Below, piece after piece: positions 22,122 through 45,500 of a DNA stretch of 59,693 nucleotides. Origin of the DNA: Arcobacteraceae bacterium (GTDB lineage: Bacteria; Campylobacterota; Campylobacteria; Campylobacterales; Arcobacteraceae); the NCBI GenBank assembly GCA_048268245.1, contig JBLWVX010000015.1, positions 1 through 59,693 on the forward strand, written 5' to 3'. A model generated the notes under the pieces. That model did no database searches, was not told the DNA's origin, and saw nothing but the letters and a program-made list of their open reading frames with translations. The first letter of the stretch is position 1; every line of letters starts with the position of its first letter. Both the position numbers and the translations under genes were made by a program.

Positions 22122-23159
22122 ATGAACAATGAATATAAATTAACTAAGTTCGTTAAAGCTGCTGGCTGAGCTGCAAAGATGGGTCCGGGGGATCTTAAAC
22201 AAACAATTTGCAATTTAAAACCAAATGACAGCAGAATTTTAGTGGGCTTTGATACAAGTGAGGATGCTAGTGTTTATCAAATAAATGATGATCAAGCTAT
22301 AGTTCAAACACTAGATTTTATTACTCCTGTAATTGATGATCCATATATTTATGGACAAATAGCAGCTGCTAACTCTCTATCAGATGTATTTGCTATGGGA
22401 GCAGAAGTTAAAACTGCTTTAAATATAGTAGGATTTGATAAAGCTAATCTATCTTATGAAGCTTTAGGAGAGATTCTAAATGGTGGAAATGAGAAGATTA
22501 AAGAGTGTGGTGGACTTTTATTAGGTGGTCATACTATTGAGTCACCTGAGATGTATTATGGTTTATCTGTTACAGGTATGATACATCCAAATGAAATAGT
22601 AAGAAACAATACAGGAAGAATTGGTGATGTTTTAGTTCTTACAAAACCAATAGGAATGGGTATTTTAACAACAGCTATTAAAAGAGATTTATTAGAACCT
22701 GCACTAATTAGAAAATGTGCAGATATTATGGCTAGCTTAAATTATCTTCCTTCAAAAATTATGAGGAAGTATAAAGTTAGCTCTTGTACTGATATTACTG
22801 GTTTTGGACTTTTAGGTCATGCTTTAGAGTCTGTAAATGAAACTACATCATTTATGATAGAGTGCTCAAACGTACCTGTAGTTGAAGAAGCTATTGCTTT
22901 AGCAAATGATGGAGTAGTTCCAGGTGGTACTAAGAAAAATATGAAATACTTAGAAGATAAAGTATCTTACATGAGTGGTTTATCACAACACTGTAAAACA
23001 CTACTTTGTGATGCACAAACATCAGGTGGTTTACTAGTAGCAATGCCAAAAGAAGACGCAGTTGAGTATATAAAAGAGCTTGAAGAATTAAGCTTTGGTT
23101 ATGCTTCGATTATTGGGGAAGTTATTCCTAAAGGTGTTAAAGATATTATAGTTCACTAA
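22122..23159 (+). CDS. selD: Selenide, water dikinase, selenocysteine-containing, 345 aa
   Basis: AAGGAG RBS, ATG 22122: MNNEYKLTKFVKAAG-U(TGA 22167-69)-AAKMGPGDL; DFITP, AANSLSDVFAMG, DITGFGLLGH, DAQTSGGLL. Confidence 0.96.
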
Positions 23160-24852: not shown

Positions 24853-25587
24853 TTAATCAATGAACTCATTTTTGTTGCCTTGGATTTTTTCTATTAGTTT
24901 GTTTCTTTGTCTTTCCCACTTATCTACTGGATCTAGTTTATTCCAAGCTTCTAATATCTTTTTATCTTTTGGTGAGATTTTCATGTCATAAGTCTTTTCA
25001 AAATAAAAATATGTTCTTGCGATATTTCCTTTTATCTCATCTCTTGGCTCTACTACTCTTCTTTTGAAATCCACTTCAAAATCCACATCTTTTCCATACC
25101 ATCTTCTCTCACCTTCGATTTGCGAAAATCTAAAGTTTGATCTATCAGCATTTAACTCACCAATGGCTGGAACTAAATTGTGTAAATCAGCTTGCATAAA
25201 TCTATACTTTTGATTTACTTTAGTACAGCACTTTCTTCCTTTGTAAGACTTGCCATTTTGTTTTACACACTGCGAATCACCCTCATACCAACATGAAAAC
25301 TGTCTACCAAAGTTTTGTGCAGGTATTACGTGTTCCCACTCTATTCTTCTAGCTCTTTTATTTTGCTTGCCTTTTTTTGTGTACTCATTTCTTGGTGTAT
25401 AACCACATGAACTTCTATCAATCATATTTGATTTATCTTTATAGTTGTATTTACAACCTGCATAAAAAGTAATCTGATTACCTTTGTAGACTTTCTTTAA
25501 AAGCTTTTTTGACTTACTAAAAGAATCAATAGTAGAATTTGCATACAGAAATGCAAAAGATAGAATAAAAATAAAAACTAAACGCAT
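24853..25587 (-). CDS. Endonuclease I family secreted DNase (EndA/Dns-like)
   Basis: Signal peptide, RIEWEHVIPA, ADLHNLVPAIGELNADRSNF, KGNIAR, QGNKN. Confidence 0.92.
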   Translation of the reverse strand: MRLVFIFILSFAFLYANSTIDSFSKSKKLLKKVYKGNQITFYAGCKYNYKDKSNMIDRSSCGYTPRNEYTKKGKQNKRARRIEWEHVIPAQNFGRQFSCWYEGDSQCVKQNGKSYKGRKCCTKVNQKYRFMQADLHNLVPAIGELNADRSNFRFSQIEGERRWYGKDVDFEVDFKRRVVEPRDEIKGNIARTYFYFEKTYDMKISPKDKKILEAWNKLDPVDKWERQRNKLIEKIQGNKNEFID

Positions 25588-25779
25588 AAACTCTCCAAAA
25601 TTTTTGAAGAAGTATAACGTATAAATAATTTCTATAGATTTATAAAAATGGGAAGTTTTAAAATAAATAATATTTTAATATGTTTTATATTTATATAGTT
25701 ATTTATTAAAAATATATCTATTTATAAGTTAAGGAAATAAAGACTAAAATCAAACAACTATATCAATTTTAGGATTAAC

Positions 25780-26001
25780 ATGAATAGTAATTATGAAAAA
25801 CGAGCTTTGATAAATACAAACAATCTAGAATGGCAAGTTCATGCTCAAAATGTATTTAAAAAAGTTTTATCAACAAAAGATGAAGAAGAAACATACATAA
25901 ACAAATATGGAAAATTTCCTAAATTACTTATCTCAAACCTAGTAGAGAAAATGAATTTTTAGTAAAAACAGATGATAACTGTGTATTTTTTAGAATATGA
26001 T
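25780..26001 (+). pseudogene. Truncated ChrR-like cupin remnant
   Basis: MNSNYEKRALINTNNLEW..VFKKVL resembles ChrR-cupin N-termini; ends early, with an out-of-frame VKTDDNCVFFR tail. Confidence 0.5.
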
Positions 26002-26039
26002 AAAAGTAAAAAATAAATTTGACTATTTACCCTCTAAAG

Positions 26040-26470
26040 TTTTAGAAAATTTAGAAAATGTAGAAAGAAGTAATATCTCAATTAGCTAATTTTTTGAAAA
26101 GGATCCTAAACCTTTTTTTACAAATACACAAGTATCAGAAGTTAGTGAAAAAGTATATTCATAAAATATGATAAAACTAAATTCTCTTAAATTAAAATTT
26201 GATTAAGAAGGATGTAAAGATTATCTTCAATCTCATTTAAATTCTATATCTACTTCTCATACAGCAACAGGATAATCTTTTAATAAAATTGGTTAAACAG
26301 ATATTATTATTCAAAATAAAAATGTTGAAAATACTTTTATTTGTGAATGAAAGATGTTAAGGAAAATAGCATTTCTAAAACCTGTAGACAAATTACTTGA
26401 AAGATAAGAGATGAATATACTTCATTAATCATATTCAATAAAAATAATCAAAACTTCTCATAAGTAATCA
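26040..26470 (+). pseudogene. Decayed PD-(D/E)xK nuclease-domain gene
   Basis: Frame from 26198 reads FD*EGCKDYLQSHLN...ATG*SFNKIG*TDIII...FICE*K, then frameshifted RDEYTSLIIFNKNNQNFS; stops at 26204, 26273, 26294, 26348. Confidence 0.65.
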
Positions 26471-26672
26471 AAATAACAAAGGAATCTTAAAATTTTTTTA
26501 CTTTTAATATCTATAAGTTTTTTACAAACTTCAAAATTTCACACTCTCAAATTCAAATTAAATATACTAATTATTAGACTCACTAGCAGTCAATAAAGCT
26601 AATAATTTTTCATAAGAACGAATCTCGTTATAAACTTACAAGAGTGAAAATAAAATTATTTTAATATTTTTT

Positions 26673-26681
26673 TGATAAAAT
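26673..26681 (+). promoter_or_regulatory. Candidate extended -10 box for the nuclease-retron operon
   Basis: TGATAAAAT about 20 nt upstream of the AAGGA RBS (26703-07). Confidence 0.35.
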
Positions 26682-26713
26682 AATAATACTTTATATTAAC
26701 AAAAGGATAAATT

Positions 26714-27718
26714 ATAATAAACTTACCATCTTATACTCACTTCAATTTAGGTTTTGGTTTTAAATACCAATATTTATTATCTATGCTACTTCATTATTTT
26801 CTTACAAATGAATTAAAACTTGAAGATTTACAAAAAGAATTGAATAAGATAATTATTAAACACAATAAAAAAAATAAAAAAAATAAAATCCATGTAAATA
26901 CATATATTTTTTTTAATCAGTTATCACAAATTTTAAATAATATAAAGAAATTAAAGTATAAAAACAATTGCTTACTAATGTTAGAAGGAGAAAATTCTTA
27001 CTTTGAAGATATAAATTTATTTGAAAAGAACTCTCAAAAATCAAAAATTTCATTTATTCAAGTTAAAGGTTCAATGGCTAATAATTCAATTGGTAGTTTG
27101 GATAATGCTATTATTTCAACAATTGCCAAATTTATTAAGAACCCTAACAGAGAATTGGAAAGTGAATTAATTTTAATGATTAATAAATCAAGTTCTAGTT
27201 ATTTAAAACTAAATTCAGACTCTGACAAAAAAGAAGCTATTATTAAAATACTTAGAAATTTAAAAGTCATCCCTTACAGTCGAAGTAAGGCAAAGTATGA
27301 AGGACTTTTTAGAATTATAGATGACTATATTGATAATAAATACTTTAATAAAAATGATATTACTATTGCAGATTACTATGTAAAACAAACTAATATTAGT
27401 TTGTACAATTTTTATAAAGATATTTTTAATGAATTAAATTTAATGAAACTAATTAATGAAATCAATAAAACTTTAAAAAAAACAAAAGTTATTGAAAATT
27501 TAGATCATAGACTAATTTACGTAATTTTAGTTAATTACTATGGAAAAAATAAATTTCACAAAATACTTTGGAATATTGAAATGAAATGTATTGATGCAAA
27601 AAAAACGAATATTAGTTTATATATAAATTACTTAACAAATATTAATTTTGACAAAAATACTATTTTTAAAATTAAATTTACAGAGAATAAAAAGGTTTCA
27701 ATTGGTAAAATTCTATAA
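26714..27718 (+). CDS. Putative retron effector: PD-(D/E)xK nuclease (Cap4/DUF4297-like), probable ATA start
   Basis: Frame open from 26711; AAGGA-N6-ATA(26714); the extension adds GFGFKYQ; later E-x6-EDI-x14-QVK (about 26984-27067). Confidence 0.6.
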   Translation: MINLPSYTHFNLGFGFKYQYLLSMLLHYFLTNELKLEDLQKELNKIIIKHNKKNKKNKIHVNTYIFFNQLSQILNNIKKLKYKNNCLLMLEGENSYFEDINLFEKNSQKSKISFIQVKGSMANNSIGSLDNAIISTIAKFIKNPNRELESELILMINKSSSSYLKLNSDSDKKEAIIKILRNLKVIPYSRSKAKYEGLFRIIDDYIDNKYFNKNDITIADYYVKQTNISLYNFYKDIFNELNLMKLINEINKTLKKTKVIENLDHRLIYVILVNYYGKNKFHKILWNIEMKCIDAKKTNISLYINYLTNINFDKNTIFKIKFTENKKVSIGKIL

Positions 27719-27836
27719 TATAGGTTTTGGTGATAAGTATAATGGTATTTTATACGGGAAAAAACATTTTGATAATGCATGTACTTTACTGAGTTCACAT
27801 TCGTTCACTTCAGTAAAGAACACGCATTATAAATTT
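27708..27836 (+). ncRNA. Putative retron msr-msd ncRNA (boundaries approximate)
   Basis: 21-bp stem 27772-92/27810-30 with 2 mismatches; small hairpin GTATAA/TTATAC (27737-55); directly upstream of the retron RT. Confidence 0.6.
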
Positions 27837-27846
27837 AGGATATTAA

Positions 27847-28914
27847 ATGTCTAATAGCAAAACCTATATTTTTGAATACAAAAAAGTAATTGATCAAATA
27901 AATTTGAAAGTTGAAAACTTCTCTTATACTATTGATGGTTGTTTTTTTATACCTCCTAAATATGATTATTATGATAAAATTATAATTAGTCACAAGTCCC
28001 TATACAAAAAGATAATTGTTAATCAAAAAAATAAAAAAAGAATTTTATTTGAGCCTTTTAGTACTTTAAAAGTAATACAGCAATATATTTTACATGAGAT
28101 CCTTTACAAAAACTCTCTAATATACAATTTAGATGAATGTGTTACAGGGTTTGTTCCAAATATTACGATTATTGATAATGCTAGGCCTCATTTAAATAAA
28201 AAAGTTTTAATAAAAATGGATATAAAAAATTTCTTCCCTTCAATCACAAGAAAAAGAGTATATGATATATTTAGAAAACAAAATAAATTTCCCTACGAAT
28301 ATTCATATTTACTTTCAAAGTTAGTAACTTTTGAAGATAAACTACCTCAAGGTTCACCTACAAGTCCTTTTCTTGCAAATATTTGTGCAAAAGGTATTGA
28401 TGCAAAAGTTAACACATTAATAAAAAAAATTATGAAAACAAAGAATATTAAAATAAACTATACAAGATATGCAGATGACTTAACAATTTCACTTGATTCT
28501 AAAATGAACTATGACTATATTATATCAGCTATTATTAATATAATTGAATCAGAAGGCTTTACTCCAAATTATAAAAAAATTAAAGTCATAAAAAATTCAC
28601 AATGTCAACTTGTAACAGGAATTGTTGTAAATAGCGATAAACCAAAAATTCAAAAAAAAGAATTAAATAAAGTTAAATTTATATTACATATCTGGGAAAA
28701 ATATTCACTTTCAGAAGCTGTTAAACTGTGGAATAAACACAAATTAGGAAAAGTATTTTTAAATAGTGAAAATGCAGAAGAACAATTAATTGATATCATT
28801 CAAGGGAAAATTAGTTTCTATGTAAAAGTAAATAAAAATCAATCAGCTTTTCTGCTAGATAAATATAAAGAATTAAATAAAAAACAATATGAAATAAATT
28901 TTTTAAATAATTAA
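27847..28914 (+). CDS. Retron-type reverse transcriptase, 355 aa
   Basis: NARPH (NAxxH, region X), MDIKNFFPSI, LPQGSPTSP, YTRYADDLTIS, QLVTGIVVN (VTG, region Y). Confidence 0.93.
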   Translation: MSNSKTYIFEYKKVIDQINLKVENFSYTIDGCFFIPPKYDYYDKIIISHKSLYKKIIVNQKNKKRILFEPFSTLKVIQQYILHEILYKNSLIYNLDECVTGFVPNITIIDNARPHLNKKVLIKMDIKNFFPSITRKRVYDIFRKQNKFPYEYSYLLSKLVTFEDKLPQGSPTSPFLANICAKGIDAKVNTLIKKIMKTKNIKINYTRYADDLTISLDSKMNYDYIISAIINIIESEGFTPNYKKIKVIKNSQCQLVTGIVVNSDKPKIQKKELNKVKFILHIWEKYSLSEAVKLWNKHKLGKVFLNSENAEEQLIDIIQGKISFYVKVNKNQSAFLLDKYKELNKKQYEINFLNN

Positions 28915-29172
28915 GTTTAATAAGTTCTTAATATAGAAAATACTTCATACATTTTTAGAGATATTGAATACTTTTAATAAAAAACAACTTAAATCCCAAC
29001 TTTTATGATAAAAGTTGATGAAAAGTGATAAGAATTAATAAAATTTGGTCATACATAATAGTAAAATAAAATTTACCATTTTATTAAGTTAAAATGAATT
29101 ATATATTAGATAAAATCTCTGAATTATTTTGTAAGAAAATATGATTTTAAGGGGAGTTTAGCCATTTTTAAA

Positions 29173-29271
29173 TGGCGAGAAGGTGTAGGAATCGAACCTA
29201 CCGAGGCGCGTACACACGAACCTCCGATCAGGGTTGAAGCCTGCGGTGTCCACCAGGATCACATACCCCCC
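29173..29271 (-). tRNA. selC: tRNA-Sec (anticodon TCA)
   Basis: CAGG-CT-TCA-AC-CCTG anticodon arm, long variable arm, GTAGG-TTCGATT-CCTAC T arm, GCCA end; divergent from selA. Confidence 0.93.
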
Positions 29272-29329
29272 GCTTAAAAGAATTGAAATCTTACACCATT
29301 TTATTTTAAAACTATCTGAAAGGGTAAAT

Positions 29330-30676
29330 ATGGGTTTACTTAAGAACCTTCCAAAGGTTGACAAGTTTGTCAACAACAAAGCTTTTGAAGAGCTTTCAAA
29401 ACAGTTGATTACAAGTATTTCTAAAGATACTATAAATCAGTACAGAAAAGACATCTTAGATGAAAAAATCCAAGATTTTACACAAGATGACATCATAAAT
29501 GATGTACTTAAAAAGTACAAAAACATCACAAAACCTTCACTTCAAAAAGTTATAAATGCTACAGGTATTATCGTGCACACAAACTTAGGTAGGTCTTTGA
29601 TAAATCCTGATAGTTTTGATAGAGCAAAAGAAGTTGCTACTTCATACAATAACTTAGAGTATTCTCTTCAAGAAGGAAAAAGAGGTGAAAGATATGAGCA
29701 TATTGTATCTACTCTTCAAGCTCTTACAGGTTGTGAAGATGCTATTGTTGTAAACAACAACGCAAGTGCTGTATTTTTGATACTAAATACTTTTGCTAAA
29801 AACAAAGATGTAGTTGTTAGTCGTGGTGAACTTGTGGAGATTGGTGGAAGTTTTAGAGTTCCTGAGGTTATGAGCCAAAGTGGTGCAAAACTAAAAGAGA
29901 TAGGTACGACAAATAAAACTCATCTTAGAGATTATGAAAATGCCATTGATGAAAACACATCTATGCTTATGAAAGTTCACAAATCAAACTACTCTATTGA
30001 AGGTTTTACATCAGAAGTTTCTTATGAAGATATCATAAAAGTAGCTCAAGAACGAAATGTTATAGACTACTATGATATGGGAAGTGGTCACATGATAGAC
30101 TTACCTTACAATCTTGACTTAAGTGAACCTTCACTTATAAAATATATGAAACACAAACCAAGTTTGCTATCTTTCTCAGGGGATAAGCTTCTTGGTTCAG
30201 TTCAAGCAGGTATTATAGTTGGTAAAAAAGATTTAATAGCAAAAATCAAAAAAAACCAACTTCTAAGAATGCTAAGAGTTGATAAAATCACTTTAGCAAT
30301 ACTTGAAGATAATCTTACTTCATATCTAAAAGGTCAAACACAAGATATCCCTACTTTAAAGATGTTACATGAAGATGTTAAAACCTTAGAGCAAAGAGCA
30401 AACACTCTAAAACAAAGCATTGAAGATATTTGTAAATGTGAAGTTATAAAAACTCAATCTTTAATAGGTGGAGGAACTACTCCAAACAAAAAGATACCAA
30501 CAATCGCCCTTACTTTAGAGTACAAAGACTACAAAGCAAACAAAATAGAAAAACTTCTTAGAAAACAAAATTTGATAGTTAGAATTGAGAATGAAAAAGT
30601 TCTAATAGACTTCAGAAGTATTCAAGAGCATGAAGTAAAAGAAATACAAGAGATTATAAAAGGAGTTTTTAACTAA
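29330..30676 (+). CDS. selA: L-seryl-tRNA(Sec) selenium transferase
   Basis: VINATGIIVHTNLGRS, VNNNASAV, SRGELVEIGGSFR, FSGDKLLG; start moved to ATG 29330 because the longer ORF overlaps selC. Confidence 0.96.
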   Translation: MGLLKNLPKVDKFVNNKAFEELSKQLITSISKDTINQYRKDILDEKIQDFTQDDIINDVLKKYKNITKPSLQKVINATGIIVHTNLGRSLINPDSFDRAKEVATSYNNLEYSLQEGKRGERYEHIVSTLQALTGCEDAIVVNNNASAVFLILNTFAKNKDVVVSRGELVEIGGSFRVPEVMSQSGAKLKEIGTTNKTHLRDYENAIDENTSMLMKVHKSNYSIEGFTSEVSYEDIIKVAQERNVIDYYDMGSGHMIDLPYNLDLSEPSLIKYMKHKPSLLSFSGDKLLGSVQAGIIVGKKDLIAKIKKNQLLRMLRVDKITLAILEDNLTSYLKGQTQDIPTLKMLHEDVKTLEQRANTLKQSIEDICKCEVIKTQSLIGGGTTPNKKIPTIALTLEYKDYKANKIEKLLRKQNLIVRIENEKVLIDFRSIQEHEVKEIQEIIKGVFN

Positions 30677-42528: not shown

Positions 42529-45500
42529 TGAATTTATTAAAAAGAATTTTAGGCCCTTTTTTTAATCCTTTTACAGGTCCAATTTTTGTAATTACGATAA
42601 TACTTACTATATCTATAATTTTTATAATCCCAAAATATACTGATCAAAACAACAAAGAACAAATGACGCAAAAAGCTGAAGAGCTAATTGATAATTTAAA
42701 AAAGACAAGAGCATACTATACTAAAAATGTTATAAACAAAATCAAAGGACATGAAGGTATAGACATAAATTATGACCATGAAACAAATGCAAAAACGGTT
42801 CCCTTGCCTGCTACATTTCTACATGACTTAAGTTTAATTTTGCCCCAAAATGAAATTGAAATAAAGATATATAGTAATTATCCTTTTCCTAACAGACAAG
42901 ATAGAGTTTTAAAAGATCATGAAAAGATGACACTTAGTTATCTTATAAATAATCCCACGAAAATTTATACTCAAAAAGTTGAATTTAATAATATTAAAAA
43001 ATATAAAGTTGCTATTGCTGATACATTTACTGATGTGTCTTGTGTAAATTGTCATAATACAAGACCAGACACACCAAGAAACGATTGGAAAATTGGTGAT
43101 GTAAGAGGTGTTATTGAAGTTAGTATGCCATATAAAAATGAGTTTATTTTAACAACTCAACAAACTTTAATAATGGTATCTATTTTAATATTCTTTATTC
43201 TCATTTTAGCTATTCACTATAATATTATTTCGGAAAGAAATGAAAAAGAACATAAAAAAGCAAAAGAAACACTTGAATCAGAAGTAGAAAATAGAACTCA
43301 AGATTTAAAAAATGCCAATAAACTTTTAAGTCAATATAAAAAAGCTGTTGACTTAAGTGCTATAGTATCAAAAACAGATAAAAATGGAAAAATCACTTTA
43401 GTAAATGATGAATTTGTTAGAACTTCTAAATATGAAAGAAATGAGTTAATTGGCGAAGACCATAATATCGTAAGACATCCTGATATGCCAAAAAGTTTAT
43501 TTGAAGAGTTATGGAATACAATTTTAAATAAACAAATTTGGAAAGGACAGATAAAAAACAAAGCTAAAGATGGCAGTGCTTATTACGTAAATACTACTAT
43601 TGTTCCTATTTTAAACTATGAAAATGAAATAGAAGAGTTTTTAGCTATTAGGCTTGATATTACTGACGTAATAAATTCTCAAATTAAAGCCCAAAAAGCG
43701 GATGAGGCGAAGTCTATATTCTTAGCAAATATGAGTCATGAAATTAGAACACCTTTAAATGCTATTATTGGTTTCTCTGATATCCTTTGTAAATCTAAAT
43801 CTTTGGATATTCATGGGCTTAAACAAGCTAGAATCATTCAGTCTAGTGCCAACTCACTACTATCTATTATTAATGATATATTAGATATTTCTAAAATTGA
43901 AAGTGGCAACTTTGATATTACTATTGACACTACTGATTTATATTTTATCTCTGAGCATGTTATTGAGCTTTTTTCTAAAAATGCTATTGAAAAAAATCTT
44001 AAACTTATTTTTAATATTGACCATAAAATCCCTCTGTGTATTTTAACTGATGGTGTTAGAATCAGACAAGTTCTTTCTAATCTTTTATCTAATGCTATTA
44101 AGTTTACTCCTCATCATGGTAAAGTTGAACTTAACATATTTCTTAAAAATATGATTAATAACAAAGCTACTATTAACTTTGAAGTTAAAGATACTGGTAT
44201 TGGTATCCCTGGTGACAAACTTGACAATGTATTCAAACCTTTCATTCAAGTTGACCATAAATCAACAAGAGAGTTTGAAGGTACTGGTTTAGGTTTAAGT
44301 ATTTGTTCTCATATTATTCAAGCTTTAGGCTCTAAAATTGGTATTGAAAGTTCTATTGGTTTAGGAACTAGATTCTTCTTTGATTTAACATTTGATATTT
44401 GTGATGATTCTATTCATACAAACAAAGACTATTTACATCATTTAAATTTCAAAGTGGAAAATACTGACAATGATTTATATCATTATATTAAAAGGTATTT
44501 ATCTATCTTTGGAACTATCAATATTAACAAGTCTTCATCTAAAGATATTTATATCTTTAATTATGATAAAGATGGCAATTTAGATGAGTTTAGAAATGTT
44601 AATAAGGACAATCCTATTTTAATTTTATTTGAGTATGAAGAGGATTTATCGAAACTTATTTTAAATGAAAATGAACAAGCTTTATCTTTACCTTTTTATG
44701 CTTCTAAGGTTAATGATGCTCTACAAGATCTTCAGAAAAAAGCTGTTGACTCTATACCTTCTCTTAGGGAAGATACTTTAGCACAATCTTTTAATGGAAA
44801 CATTTTAGTTGCTGAGGATAACCTTGCTAATCAGGAACTAATCTCTTATATTTTAGAAAGTTTCGGTCTTAATTATACTATTAAACCTAATGGCAAAGAA
44901 ACTCTAGATGAGTTTATCTCTAATCCTGAGGCTTATGATTTAGTTTTAATGGATATTAATATGCCTATTATGGATGGTATTGAGGCATTTAATGCCATTA
45001 GAGAACATGAAAAGCAAAATGCCTTAGGTACTATTCCTATTATTGCTTTAACTGCTAATGCCATTAAAGGTGATAGGGAAAAATTCTTAAATATTGGTAT
45101 GAATGAGTATTTATCTAAGCCTGTTAATACTAATGATTTAAAGTTTATATTTGACAAGTTTTTAAATATTCAAAAAGATATCTCTTCTAATATATCTAAA
45201 GAAGATATTATTACAAACAATGATGAAGTATTTAGAATTGATATTAATAAGGTTATTAATAAGCTTGGTGTTTCTGAGAATATAGCTTTAATGATTATTA
45301 ACAAGTTTAAAAAAGAAATTCACAAGGATTTAGATGAACTTCAATCTTTTATTGAGGATAATGACTTTGAAAACATATCATCAAAAGCTCATTATATTAA
45401 AAACTCTTGTTTAAATCTTGCTTTAGATGATATCTGTGAAAAACTTCAATTACTTGAAAGCTCTTCTAATTTATCTACCTCTGAAATCAATGATTCTTTC

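Follow-up and report, generated by a model that had tools for sequence, protein, structure and literature searches.

A predicted two-gene retron in an Arcobacteraceae bacterium with a candidate effector outside the published types and an RNA overlapping both reading frames

Background

Retrons defend bacteria against phages by means of a reverse transcriptase (RT), and they also supply genome-editing tools. How a retron behaves depends on the pair formed by the RT and its non-coding RNA (ncRNA), together with the effector. The published scheme of 13 types lists as partners ATPase, HNH, Toprim, NDT, PRTase, 2TM, CSD, HTH, DUF3800, DUF626, HEPN, IHF/VHL, protease, TIR, and SWIM/ARM proteins (Table 1, PMC7736814), and in the canonical msr/msd consensus "two opposing G residues" are placed atop the a1/a2 stem (Figure 2 legend, PMC7736814). 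Here, we analysed a 59,693-nt stretch of DNA from an Arcobacteraceae bacterium (GCA_048268245.1, contig JBLWVX010000015.1), hereafter the window, and in particular the spacer between an RT gene and the gene that precedes it, orfA. We propose that positions 27717-27870 correspond to the msr-msd ncRNA of a two-gene retron with the order orfA, ncRNA, RT, a reading that is derived from sequence comparisons and that we hold with a probability of roughly 80%. This retron would combine an effector family outside the published types with an ncRNA extending into the reading frames on either side, and its product, a multicopy single-stranded DNA (msDNA), is predicted.

The candidate RNA resembles the canonical retron ncRNAs (IA/IIA1 consensus, Mestre et al. 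2020, PMC7736814) in its terminal a1/a2 repeats and opposing Gs, as well as in its short conserved msr hairpin and long variable msd stem-loop, all encoded on the same strand and immediately 5' of the RT. Unlike the canonical ncRNAs, the RNA of the window lies between an effector gene and the RT, overlaps both of them, and displays no sequence match to a described family.

The spacer and its homologues

An earlier note on this DNA, made from the letters alone, had read the spacer as an msr-msd RNA with a short hairpin in the msr and a long hairpin in the msd. Our results support this view, since the downstream gene encodes a retron-type RT and the 5' half of the spacer is conserved while its 3' half is variable. 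This is the pattern expected of a retron RNA, which has a conserved msr and a variable msd. The element at 27712-27876 folded at -44 kcal/mol with a z-score of -6.35, which none of 200 shuffled sequences equalled, and its minimum-energy structure was identical to its centroid structure, both displaying the a1/a2 stem, the msr hairpin, and the long msd hairpin. The z-score of the RNA fold was -2.77 for the interval 27700-27860.

Scans with the OrfA alignment retrieved five genome loci and nine metagenome loci, the former from Campylobacterota metagenome-assembled genomes of Sulfurovum, Sulfurimonas, Arcobacteraceae, and Campylobacteraceae. The layout orfA-spacer-RT was present in all 11 loci with enough downstream sequence, the window included, and no third gene was conserved among them. 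A twelfth locus (L016) contributed the start of the RT only. With it, 12 loci show the order of orfA, a structured RNA of 113-180 nt, and the RT. Locus L011, which is cut off inside the spacer after the msr, and loci L008 and L018, which are partial orfA-like matches with no spacer, fall outside the stem counts given below. Spacer length was 119-162 nt in ten of the loci, with L010 standing apart at 279 nt. Pair counts are based on 10 loci, as L010 and L019 were left out because the MAFFT alignment of the 12 loci misaligned their msr.

The same 10 loci were used to build a covariance model of 198 positions and 24 pairs, with an effective sequence number of 3.1. It gave one strong match per locus, and also recovered the truncated L011, which was outside the training set, at 82 bits. 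With a threshold of E <= 0.01, the model matched nothing elsewhere in the window and nothing at four other RT loci. It also found no matching ncRNA at L005, the locus of a second RT described below.

The reverse transcriptase

The RT gene (27847-28914, plus strand) encodes a protein of 355 aa that matched profiles of PADLOC, NCBIfam, and Pfam (RVT_1), and that is not fused to another domain. PADLOC retron RT profiles matched it with 137-220 bits, led by RT_III-A (220) and followed by types XII, XIII, and XI (202-207), and NCBIfam retron_St85_RT matched with 183.7 bits, under its cut-off of 235. The protein displays NARPH at residues 111-115, YADD, and VTG at residues 256-258. Among these, N111, A112, and H115, the residues A209, D210, and D211 of the ADD core, and V256, T257, and G258 were invariant in an alignment of eight RT sequences. 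The NAXXH motif of region X and the VTG motif of region Y are hallmarks of retron RTs (PMC7736814, section 15).

Type III retrons, whose subtype III-A supplied the best PADLOC profile for this RT, are defined by a PRTase-like partner, to which a winged-helix protein may be added (PMC7736814). No counterpart of the PRTase was found here: OrfA had no Pfam or PADLOC match, no PRTase was among the structural matches listed for it, and the cassette holds no other conserved gene.

Two homologous loci carry RT frames that are possibly damaged, either by decay or by assembly error. In L007 (5059-5892), the frame comprises 277 aa and ends early, and in L010 (4972-5891) the frame of the N-terminus differs from that of the remaining sequence. 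The genome of the window also encodes a second retron-type RT (G000:C12:72302-72961, minus strand, locus L005) in a 315-aa frame with 34% identity to the first, and this second RT has a counterpart in genome G004. Among five other genomes of the same genus, the RT was found in one, solely as a distant paralogue of 34% identity.

The closing stem and the candidate branching G

The arms of the closing stem are a1 at 27717-27729 (AATATAGGTTTTG), which overlaps the stop codon of orfA (27716-18), and a2 at 27858-27870 (CAAAACCTATATT), which lies within codons 4-8 of the RT, both on the plus strand. They form 13 perfect pairs, and the window holds just five distinct perfect inverted repeats of at least 13 nt within 200 nt, a1/a2 among them. 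When the 5' flank was folded against the 3' flank, an a1 ending at an invariant GG was the best partner in nine of nine loci, and the matching a2 was located 5-38 nt inside the RT frame. After L016, L010, and L019 were added, cognate stems of 14-17 pairs were obtained in all 12 loci. Cognate combinations of a1 and a2 had a mean energy of -16.3 kcal/mol versus -9.2 kcal/mol for non-cognate ones, and the cognate partner ranked first in 7 of the 12 loci, the exceptions being near-identical relatives.

The comparison of homologous positions points in the same direction. In the 10-locus alignment, 86.5% of the a1/a2 cells were paired, versus 35-43% when the partner was slid by one to three columns. 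One pair of a1/a2 columns reads UA in five loci, GC in four, and AU in one, and the covariation score of 0.144 (shuffled mean 0.087) was reached by none of 500 shuffles. Since a1 is non-coding, protein constraint cannot account for its match to a2.

At the inner end of this stem, on the plus strand, are G27730 and the opposing G27857. Both are invariant in the alignments and are left unpaired by the minimum-energy as well as the centroid structure, and they correspond to the opposing Gs of the canonical consensus (PMC7736814). By this correspondence, G27730 is the candidate branching residue and the likely branch point.

A different assignment had been put forward in the earlier note, in which 27708-19 served as a1, 27826-36 as a2, and G27723 or G27724 as the branch point. 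The complementarity that it was built upon does exist, as AAATTCTATAAT (27708-19) can pair with 27826-36 with one bulged C and is followed by TAGG. The role of these segments as arms did not hold: their best duplex reaches -1.6 kcal/mol, versus -11.7 kcal/mol or better for the revised arms, they compete with the base of the long stem, the 3' arm falls in a non-conserved region, and the conserved, covarying stem is 27717-27729/27858-27870 instead. Likewise, G27723 and G27724 are base-paired inside a1 of the conserved stem, to C27864 and C27863, respectively. We regard that assignment as highly improbable. The a2 arm supported here falls past 27846, where the spacer had been taken to end, and inside the RT frame.

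The position of the stem raises another explanation, namely that it merely couples the translation of orfA and the RT or serves the stability of their mRNA, with no msDNA being made. The stem does link the stop codon of orfA to the first codons of the RT, and a ribosome terminating on orfA would melt it. Such a role accounts neither for the opposing Gs and their invariance, nor for the msr hairpin, which is conserved along with its flanks, nor for the variable long hairpin. Moreover, a retron-type RT depends on an ncRNA, for which the vicinity of the genes offered no second conserved candidate. We thus consider a pure coupling structure very unlikely, and favor the closing stem of a retron ncRNA.

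The msr and its hairpin

The msr (27731-27771, plus strand) begins with a conserved linker, TGATAA, which is followed by a hairpin (27737-27755), a conserved GGGAA, and a weakly conserved tail. Across loci, the conserved 5' half of the spacer reads TTTTGG(C/T)GATAAG, then GTATGA-N7-TCATAC, then GGGAA. The hairpin of 6 bp that had been noticed upstream of the long stem is present as described: 27737-42 pairs with 27750-55 around a 7-nt loop, and it was paired in 100% of the cells of all 10 aligned loci. It displays a single compensatory change, being A-U in the window and G-C in the nine other loci. Canonical msr regions carry one to three short hairpins, of which one is supported here. A second small msr hairpin (alignment columns 72-91) was paired in just 56.7% of cells and was dropped as a conserved feature. 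A search of viral contigs with the msr motif pattern returned 0 matches.

The msd and its long hairpin

The long hairpin of the msd occupies 27772-27830 on the plus strand. As the earlier note had described, 27772-27792 pairs with 27810-27830 at 19 of 21 positions, with mismatches A27779/C27823 and A27783/A27819, the first of which becomes a G-T pair in the DNA copy, as the sequence confirms. The loop (27793-27809) comprises 17 nt and indeed carries GTTCAC twice, at 27793-98 and 27803-08. A scan for stems of 21 bp with at most two mismatches and loops of 3-30 nt found no other stem of its kind in the window, and one stem in total in ten first-order Markov random sequences. The DNA strand in the msDNA sense (27765-27858) folded at -16.8 kcal/mol (z-score -5.02), which was matched by none of 200 shuffles. 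At the homologous position, other loci have hairpins that differ in sequence and length. These are long in L010, L013, L014, L015, and L019, and weaker or fragmented in L006, L007, L009, L012, and L016. The tandem GTTCAC is absent from the homologous loci, where the msd sequences are unrelated, and any meaning of this repeat would be specific to this copy.

The 3' part of the predicted msd template (27831-27857, plus strand) contains the Shine-Dalgarno-like AGGA of the RT (27836-39), its start codon (27847-49), and G27857. By retron geometry, this segment would serve as template. The strongest promoter-like match of the region is antisense (27853-27826, minus strand; TAGACA, 16 nt, TATAAT, 11 of 12 positions) and spans the RT start and the 3' end of the msd. 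The promoter scan is uninformative because its 40 sites compare with 31 +/- 6 expected by chance in A+T-rich DNA.

A hairpin that comes after a stop codon could also be a terminator or attenuator of orfA, in which case the true ncRNA might be sought upstream of that gene (26000-26700), where a 720-nt A+T-rich non-coding stretch contains two imperfect inverted repeats (25973-26137 and 26647-26692). The long stem is itself A+T-rich and is followed by AAATTTAGG, with no U-run, and a scan of 25900-29300 for intrinsic terminators, defined as a G+C-rich stem and then a U-run, found no site on the plus strand. Conservation of the upstream region is confined to close pairs of loci, and the region has neither a covariance-model nor an Rfam match. 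The interval 26500-26700, which the earlier note had named as a place where the msDNA might map instead, gained no support, as no conserved element was seen upstream of the partner gene. Both versions of this explanation seem hardly plausible to us, and the long hairpin is better read as the msd of the retron.

Several observations weigh against the identification of the element as a retron ncRNA. A search of 25500-29700 with the Rfam 15 covariance models at E <= 10 returned tRNA-Sec as its sole match, and none for the spacer RNA. Two-sided changes are limited to one a1/a2 column pair and one pair of the msr hairpin, and variation of a2 is restricted by its coding role. The 12 loci are related to each other and include the near-duplicates L006/L012 and L014/L015, and an effective sequence number of 3.1 means that the covariation represents few independent events. 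The covariance model failed to detect L010 and L019, the two most divergent loci, whose stems come from inspection by eye and duplex folding. In L006, L012, and L009, z-scores of the inner region ranged from -0.77 to +0.04, in agreement with a weak or fragmented msd hairpin. Finally, retron RNAs of type VI reportedly need not yield msDNA constitutively (10.1101/2025.10.22.683967).

Overlap with translation signals

In every locus, a Shine-Dalgarno-like site and the AUG of the RT are located inside the predicted template, with a1 on the stop codon of orfA and a2 in RT codons. This arrangement suggests that translation and reverse transcription may compete on one transcript. A full-text literature search found no description of a retron ncRNA overlapping a start codon.

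The same arrangement could instead indicate a non-canonical retron RNA similar to the "hybrid RNA" of type VI, acting mainly as a translational switch, in which msDNA would be made only upon triggering, or in which reverse transcription and RNase H would shut off translation of the RT from the transcript concerned. The a1/a2 stem and the msd enclose the ribosome-binding site and start codon of the RT, a2 is in codons 4-8, and a1 overlaps the stop codon of orfA. There is also a reported precedent for a retron RNA that joins template and coding sequence (10.1101/2025.10.22.683967). The hybrid RNA of the type VI Retron-Vpa2 is a loose precedent, as it reportedly places template and translation signals on one structured transcript, like the RNA studied here. 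The enclosed coding sequence is that of a toxin in type VI, whereas it is the start of the RT in the window, and RT type and partner genes differ as well. In addition, type VI encloses an effector gene and not an RT start, and the architecture of our element is otherwise canonical, with opposing Gs, an msr hairpin, and a long msd hairpin. Hence, we find a switch of this kind unlikely and retain the interpretation as an msr-msd ncRNA.

The partner gene orfA

The gene orfA (26717-27718, plus strand; about 333 aa) has a non-ATG start and encodes a candidate effector resembling the PD-(D/E)xK nucleases Cap4 and LmuA. The family profile aligns to 26717-27715 over positions 1-332 of 332. A mechanical open reading frame call (26783-27718) begins with the ATG at 26783 and thereby loses about 22 conserved residues, and the in-frame translation from 26717 fits the family consensus. 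The start is ATA or ATT at 26711-26719, where homologues have ATG. Specifically, the homologues read ATG AAT ATA, and the window reads ATT ATA ATA AAC after AAGGA. Either a rare ATA/ATT start is used, or the start codon has been weakened or inactivated.

Sequence searches gave no name to this protein. Its 24 homologues are all unnamed, and it had no Pfam or PADLOC match at E <= 0.01. In NCBIfam, a single sub-threshold row at chance level was obtained (HetP, 14.8 bits, cut-off 45), and a search of PDB sequences with the OrfA profile returned two chance-level rows alone (E 0.31 and 0.45).

The AlphaFold2 model of OrfA, based on a 25-sequence alignment, had a mean predicted local distance difference test score of 85.5 and a predicted template modelling score of 0.85. 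The top Foldseek match of the model was LmuA, with E-values of 2.3e-3 and 8.9e-3. In a structural search independent of Foldseek, the top five rows were the N-terminus of Avs3, LmuA, HamA, and two Cap4 structures (Z 6.6-7.4 over 149-164 residues), although the tool warns that Z below 8 may reflect just a common arrangement. The Atlas provided no more than a lead, namely a cluster with Cap4_nuclease (PF14130) in 19% of its members. Invariant residues of OrfA (E68, E70, E75, D76, Q93, and K95 in the 311-aa numbering) comprise acidic residues and a Q-x-K motif. The C-terminal region of about 130 residues forms a helical domain with no clear structural match.

OrfA resembles, at modest scores, the Cap4, LmuA, Avs3 N-terminal, and HamA nuclease modules of the CBASS, Lamassu, Avs, and Hachiman defence systems by predicted fold, and not by sequence (Pfam, PADLOC, NCBIfam, PDB). 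The modelled structure makes it a candidate Cap4-like PD-(D/E)xK nuclease effector. It matches no partner of the 13 retron types, and none of the PADLOC profiles (Table 1, PMC7736814). At the level of titles and abstracts, we found no retron with a DUF4297-type effector in the literature, where supplementary tables could list this lineage. The terms "Campylobacterota" and "nuclease" have 0 occurrences in the available text of the SPIRE retron survey (PMC13712802), whose supplementary tables could likewise include it. The family may be unlisted because it is rare: orfA was detected in one of the 401 genomes sampled across the phylum, that of the window itself, and five loci were found among the species genomes scanned.

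Genomic context

The cassette comprises about 3.06 kb (25996-29056, plus strand) and is replaced by about 330 bp in the complete genome G001 of the same genus. By blastn against that locus (L023), 25885-25995 and 29057-30500 of the window match stretches that are 329 bp apart in G001. The cassette is flanked by an endonuclease I gene and by tRNA-Sec (29177-29273, minus strand), in a selenocysteine neighbourhood with a selD-like gene (22179-23159), tRNA-Sec, selA, and selB. It showed neither an integrase nor a flanking repeat. Inside it, the 720-nt A+T-rich non-coding stretch that precedes orfA (25996-26716) has no conserved counterpart in the other loci. In another genome of the genus, G002, a stretch covering the 3' end of tRNA-Sec is present twice, 24 kb apart (G002:C2:18958-19687 and 44069-44121). 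This duplication looks like an element integrated at tRNA-Sec, in which case the site would be a hotspot.

Proposed mechanism and implications

The scheme of priming and copying that we apply to this locus is taken from retron biology (PMC7736814, introduction). By this scheme, the RT would bind the msr and prime on the 2'-OH of the unpaired G27730, copying leftwards from about G27857. The copy would run through the ribosome-binding site and start codon of the RT itself and then through the long hairpin, and would stop before the msr hairpin, at about 27760-27771. This would yield a branched msDNA of about 85-100 nt, whose 21-bp stem would contain the G-T pair and a T/T mismatch, since A/A becomes T/T in DNA. 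By analogy alone, the complex of RT and msDNA would restrain the nuclease-like OrfA until perturbation by a phage.

A more far-reaching possibility, which we hold to be less likely than not, is that this is a fourteenth kind of retron. It would consist of a 3-kb cassette of two genes with a Cap4-like nuclease effector, and of a template that includes the ribosome-binding site and start codon of the RT, such that reverse transcription and RNase H would end the RT output of that transcript. If this is true, a built-in negative feedback would set the ratio of RT, msDNA, and nuclease, and the RT translation start would be present in the msDNA in antisense form.

The family adds a compact RT of 355 aa and a short ncRNA with defined arms and a candidate priming G. 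Its candidate effector class falls outside the 13-type scheme and would tie retrons to the Cap4-type modules of CBASS, Lamassu, Avs, and Hachiman. Whether msDNA synthesis and RT translation compete on one transcript is a question that the conserved overlap with the two reading frames makes testable.

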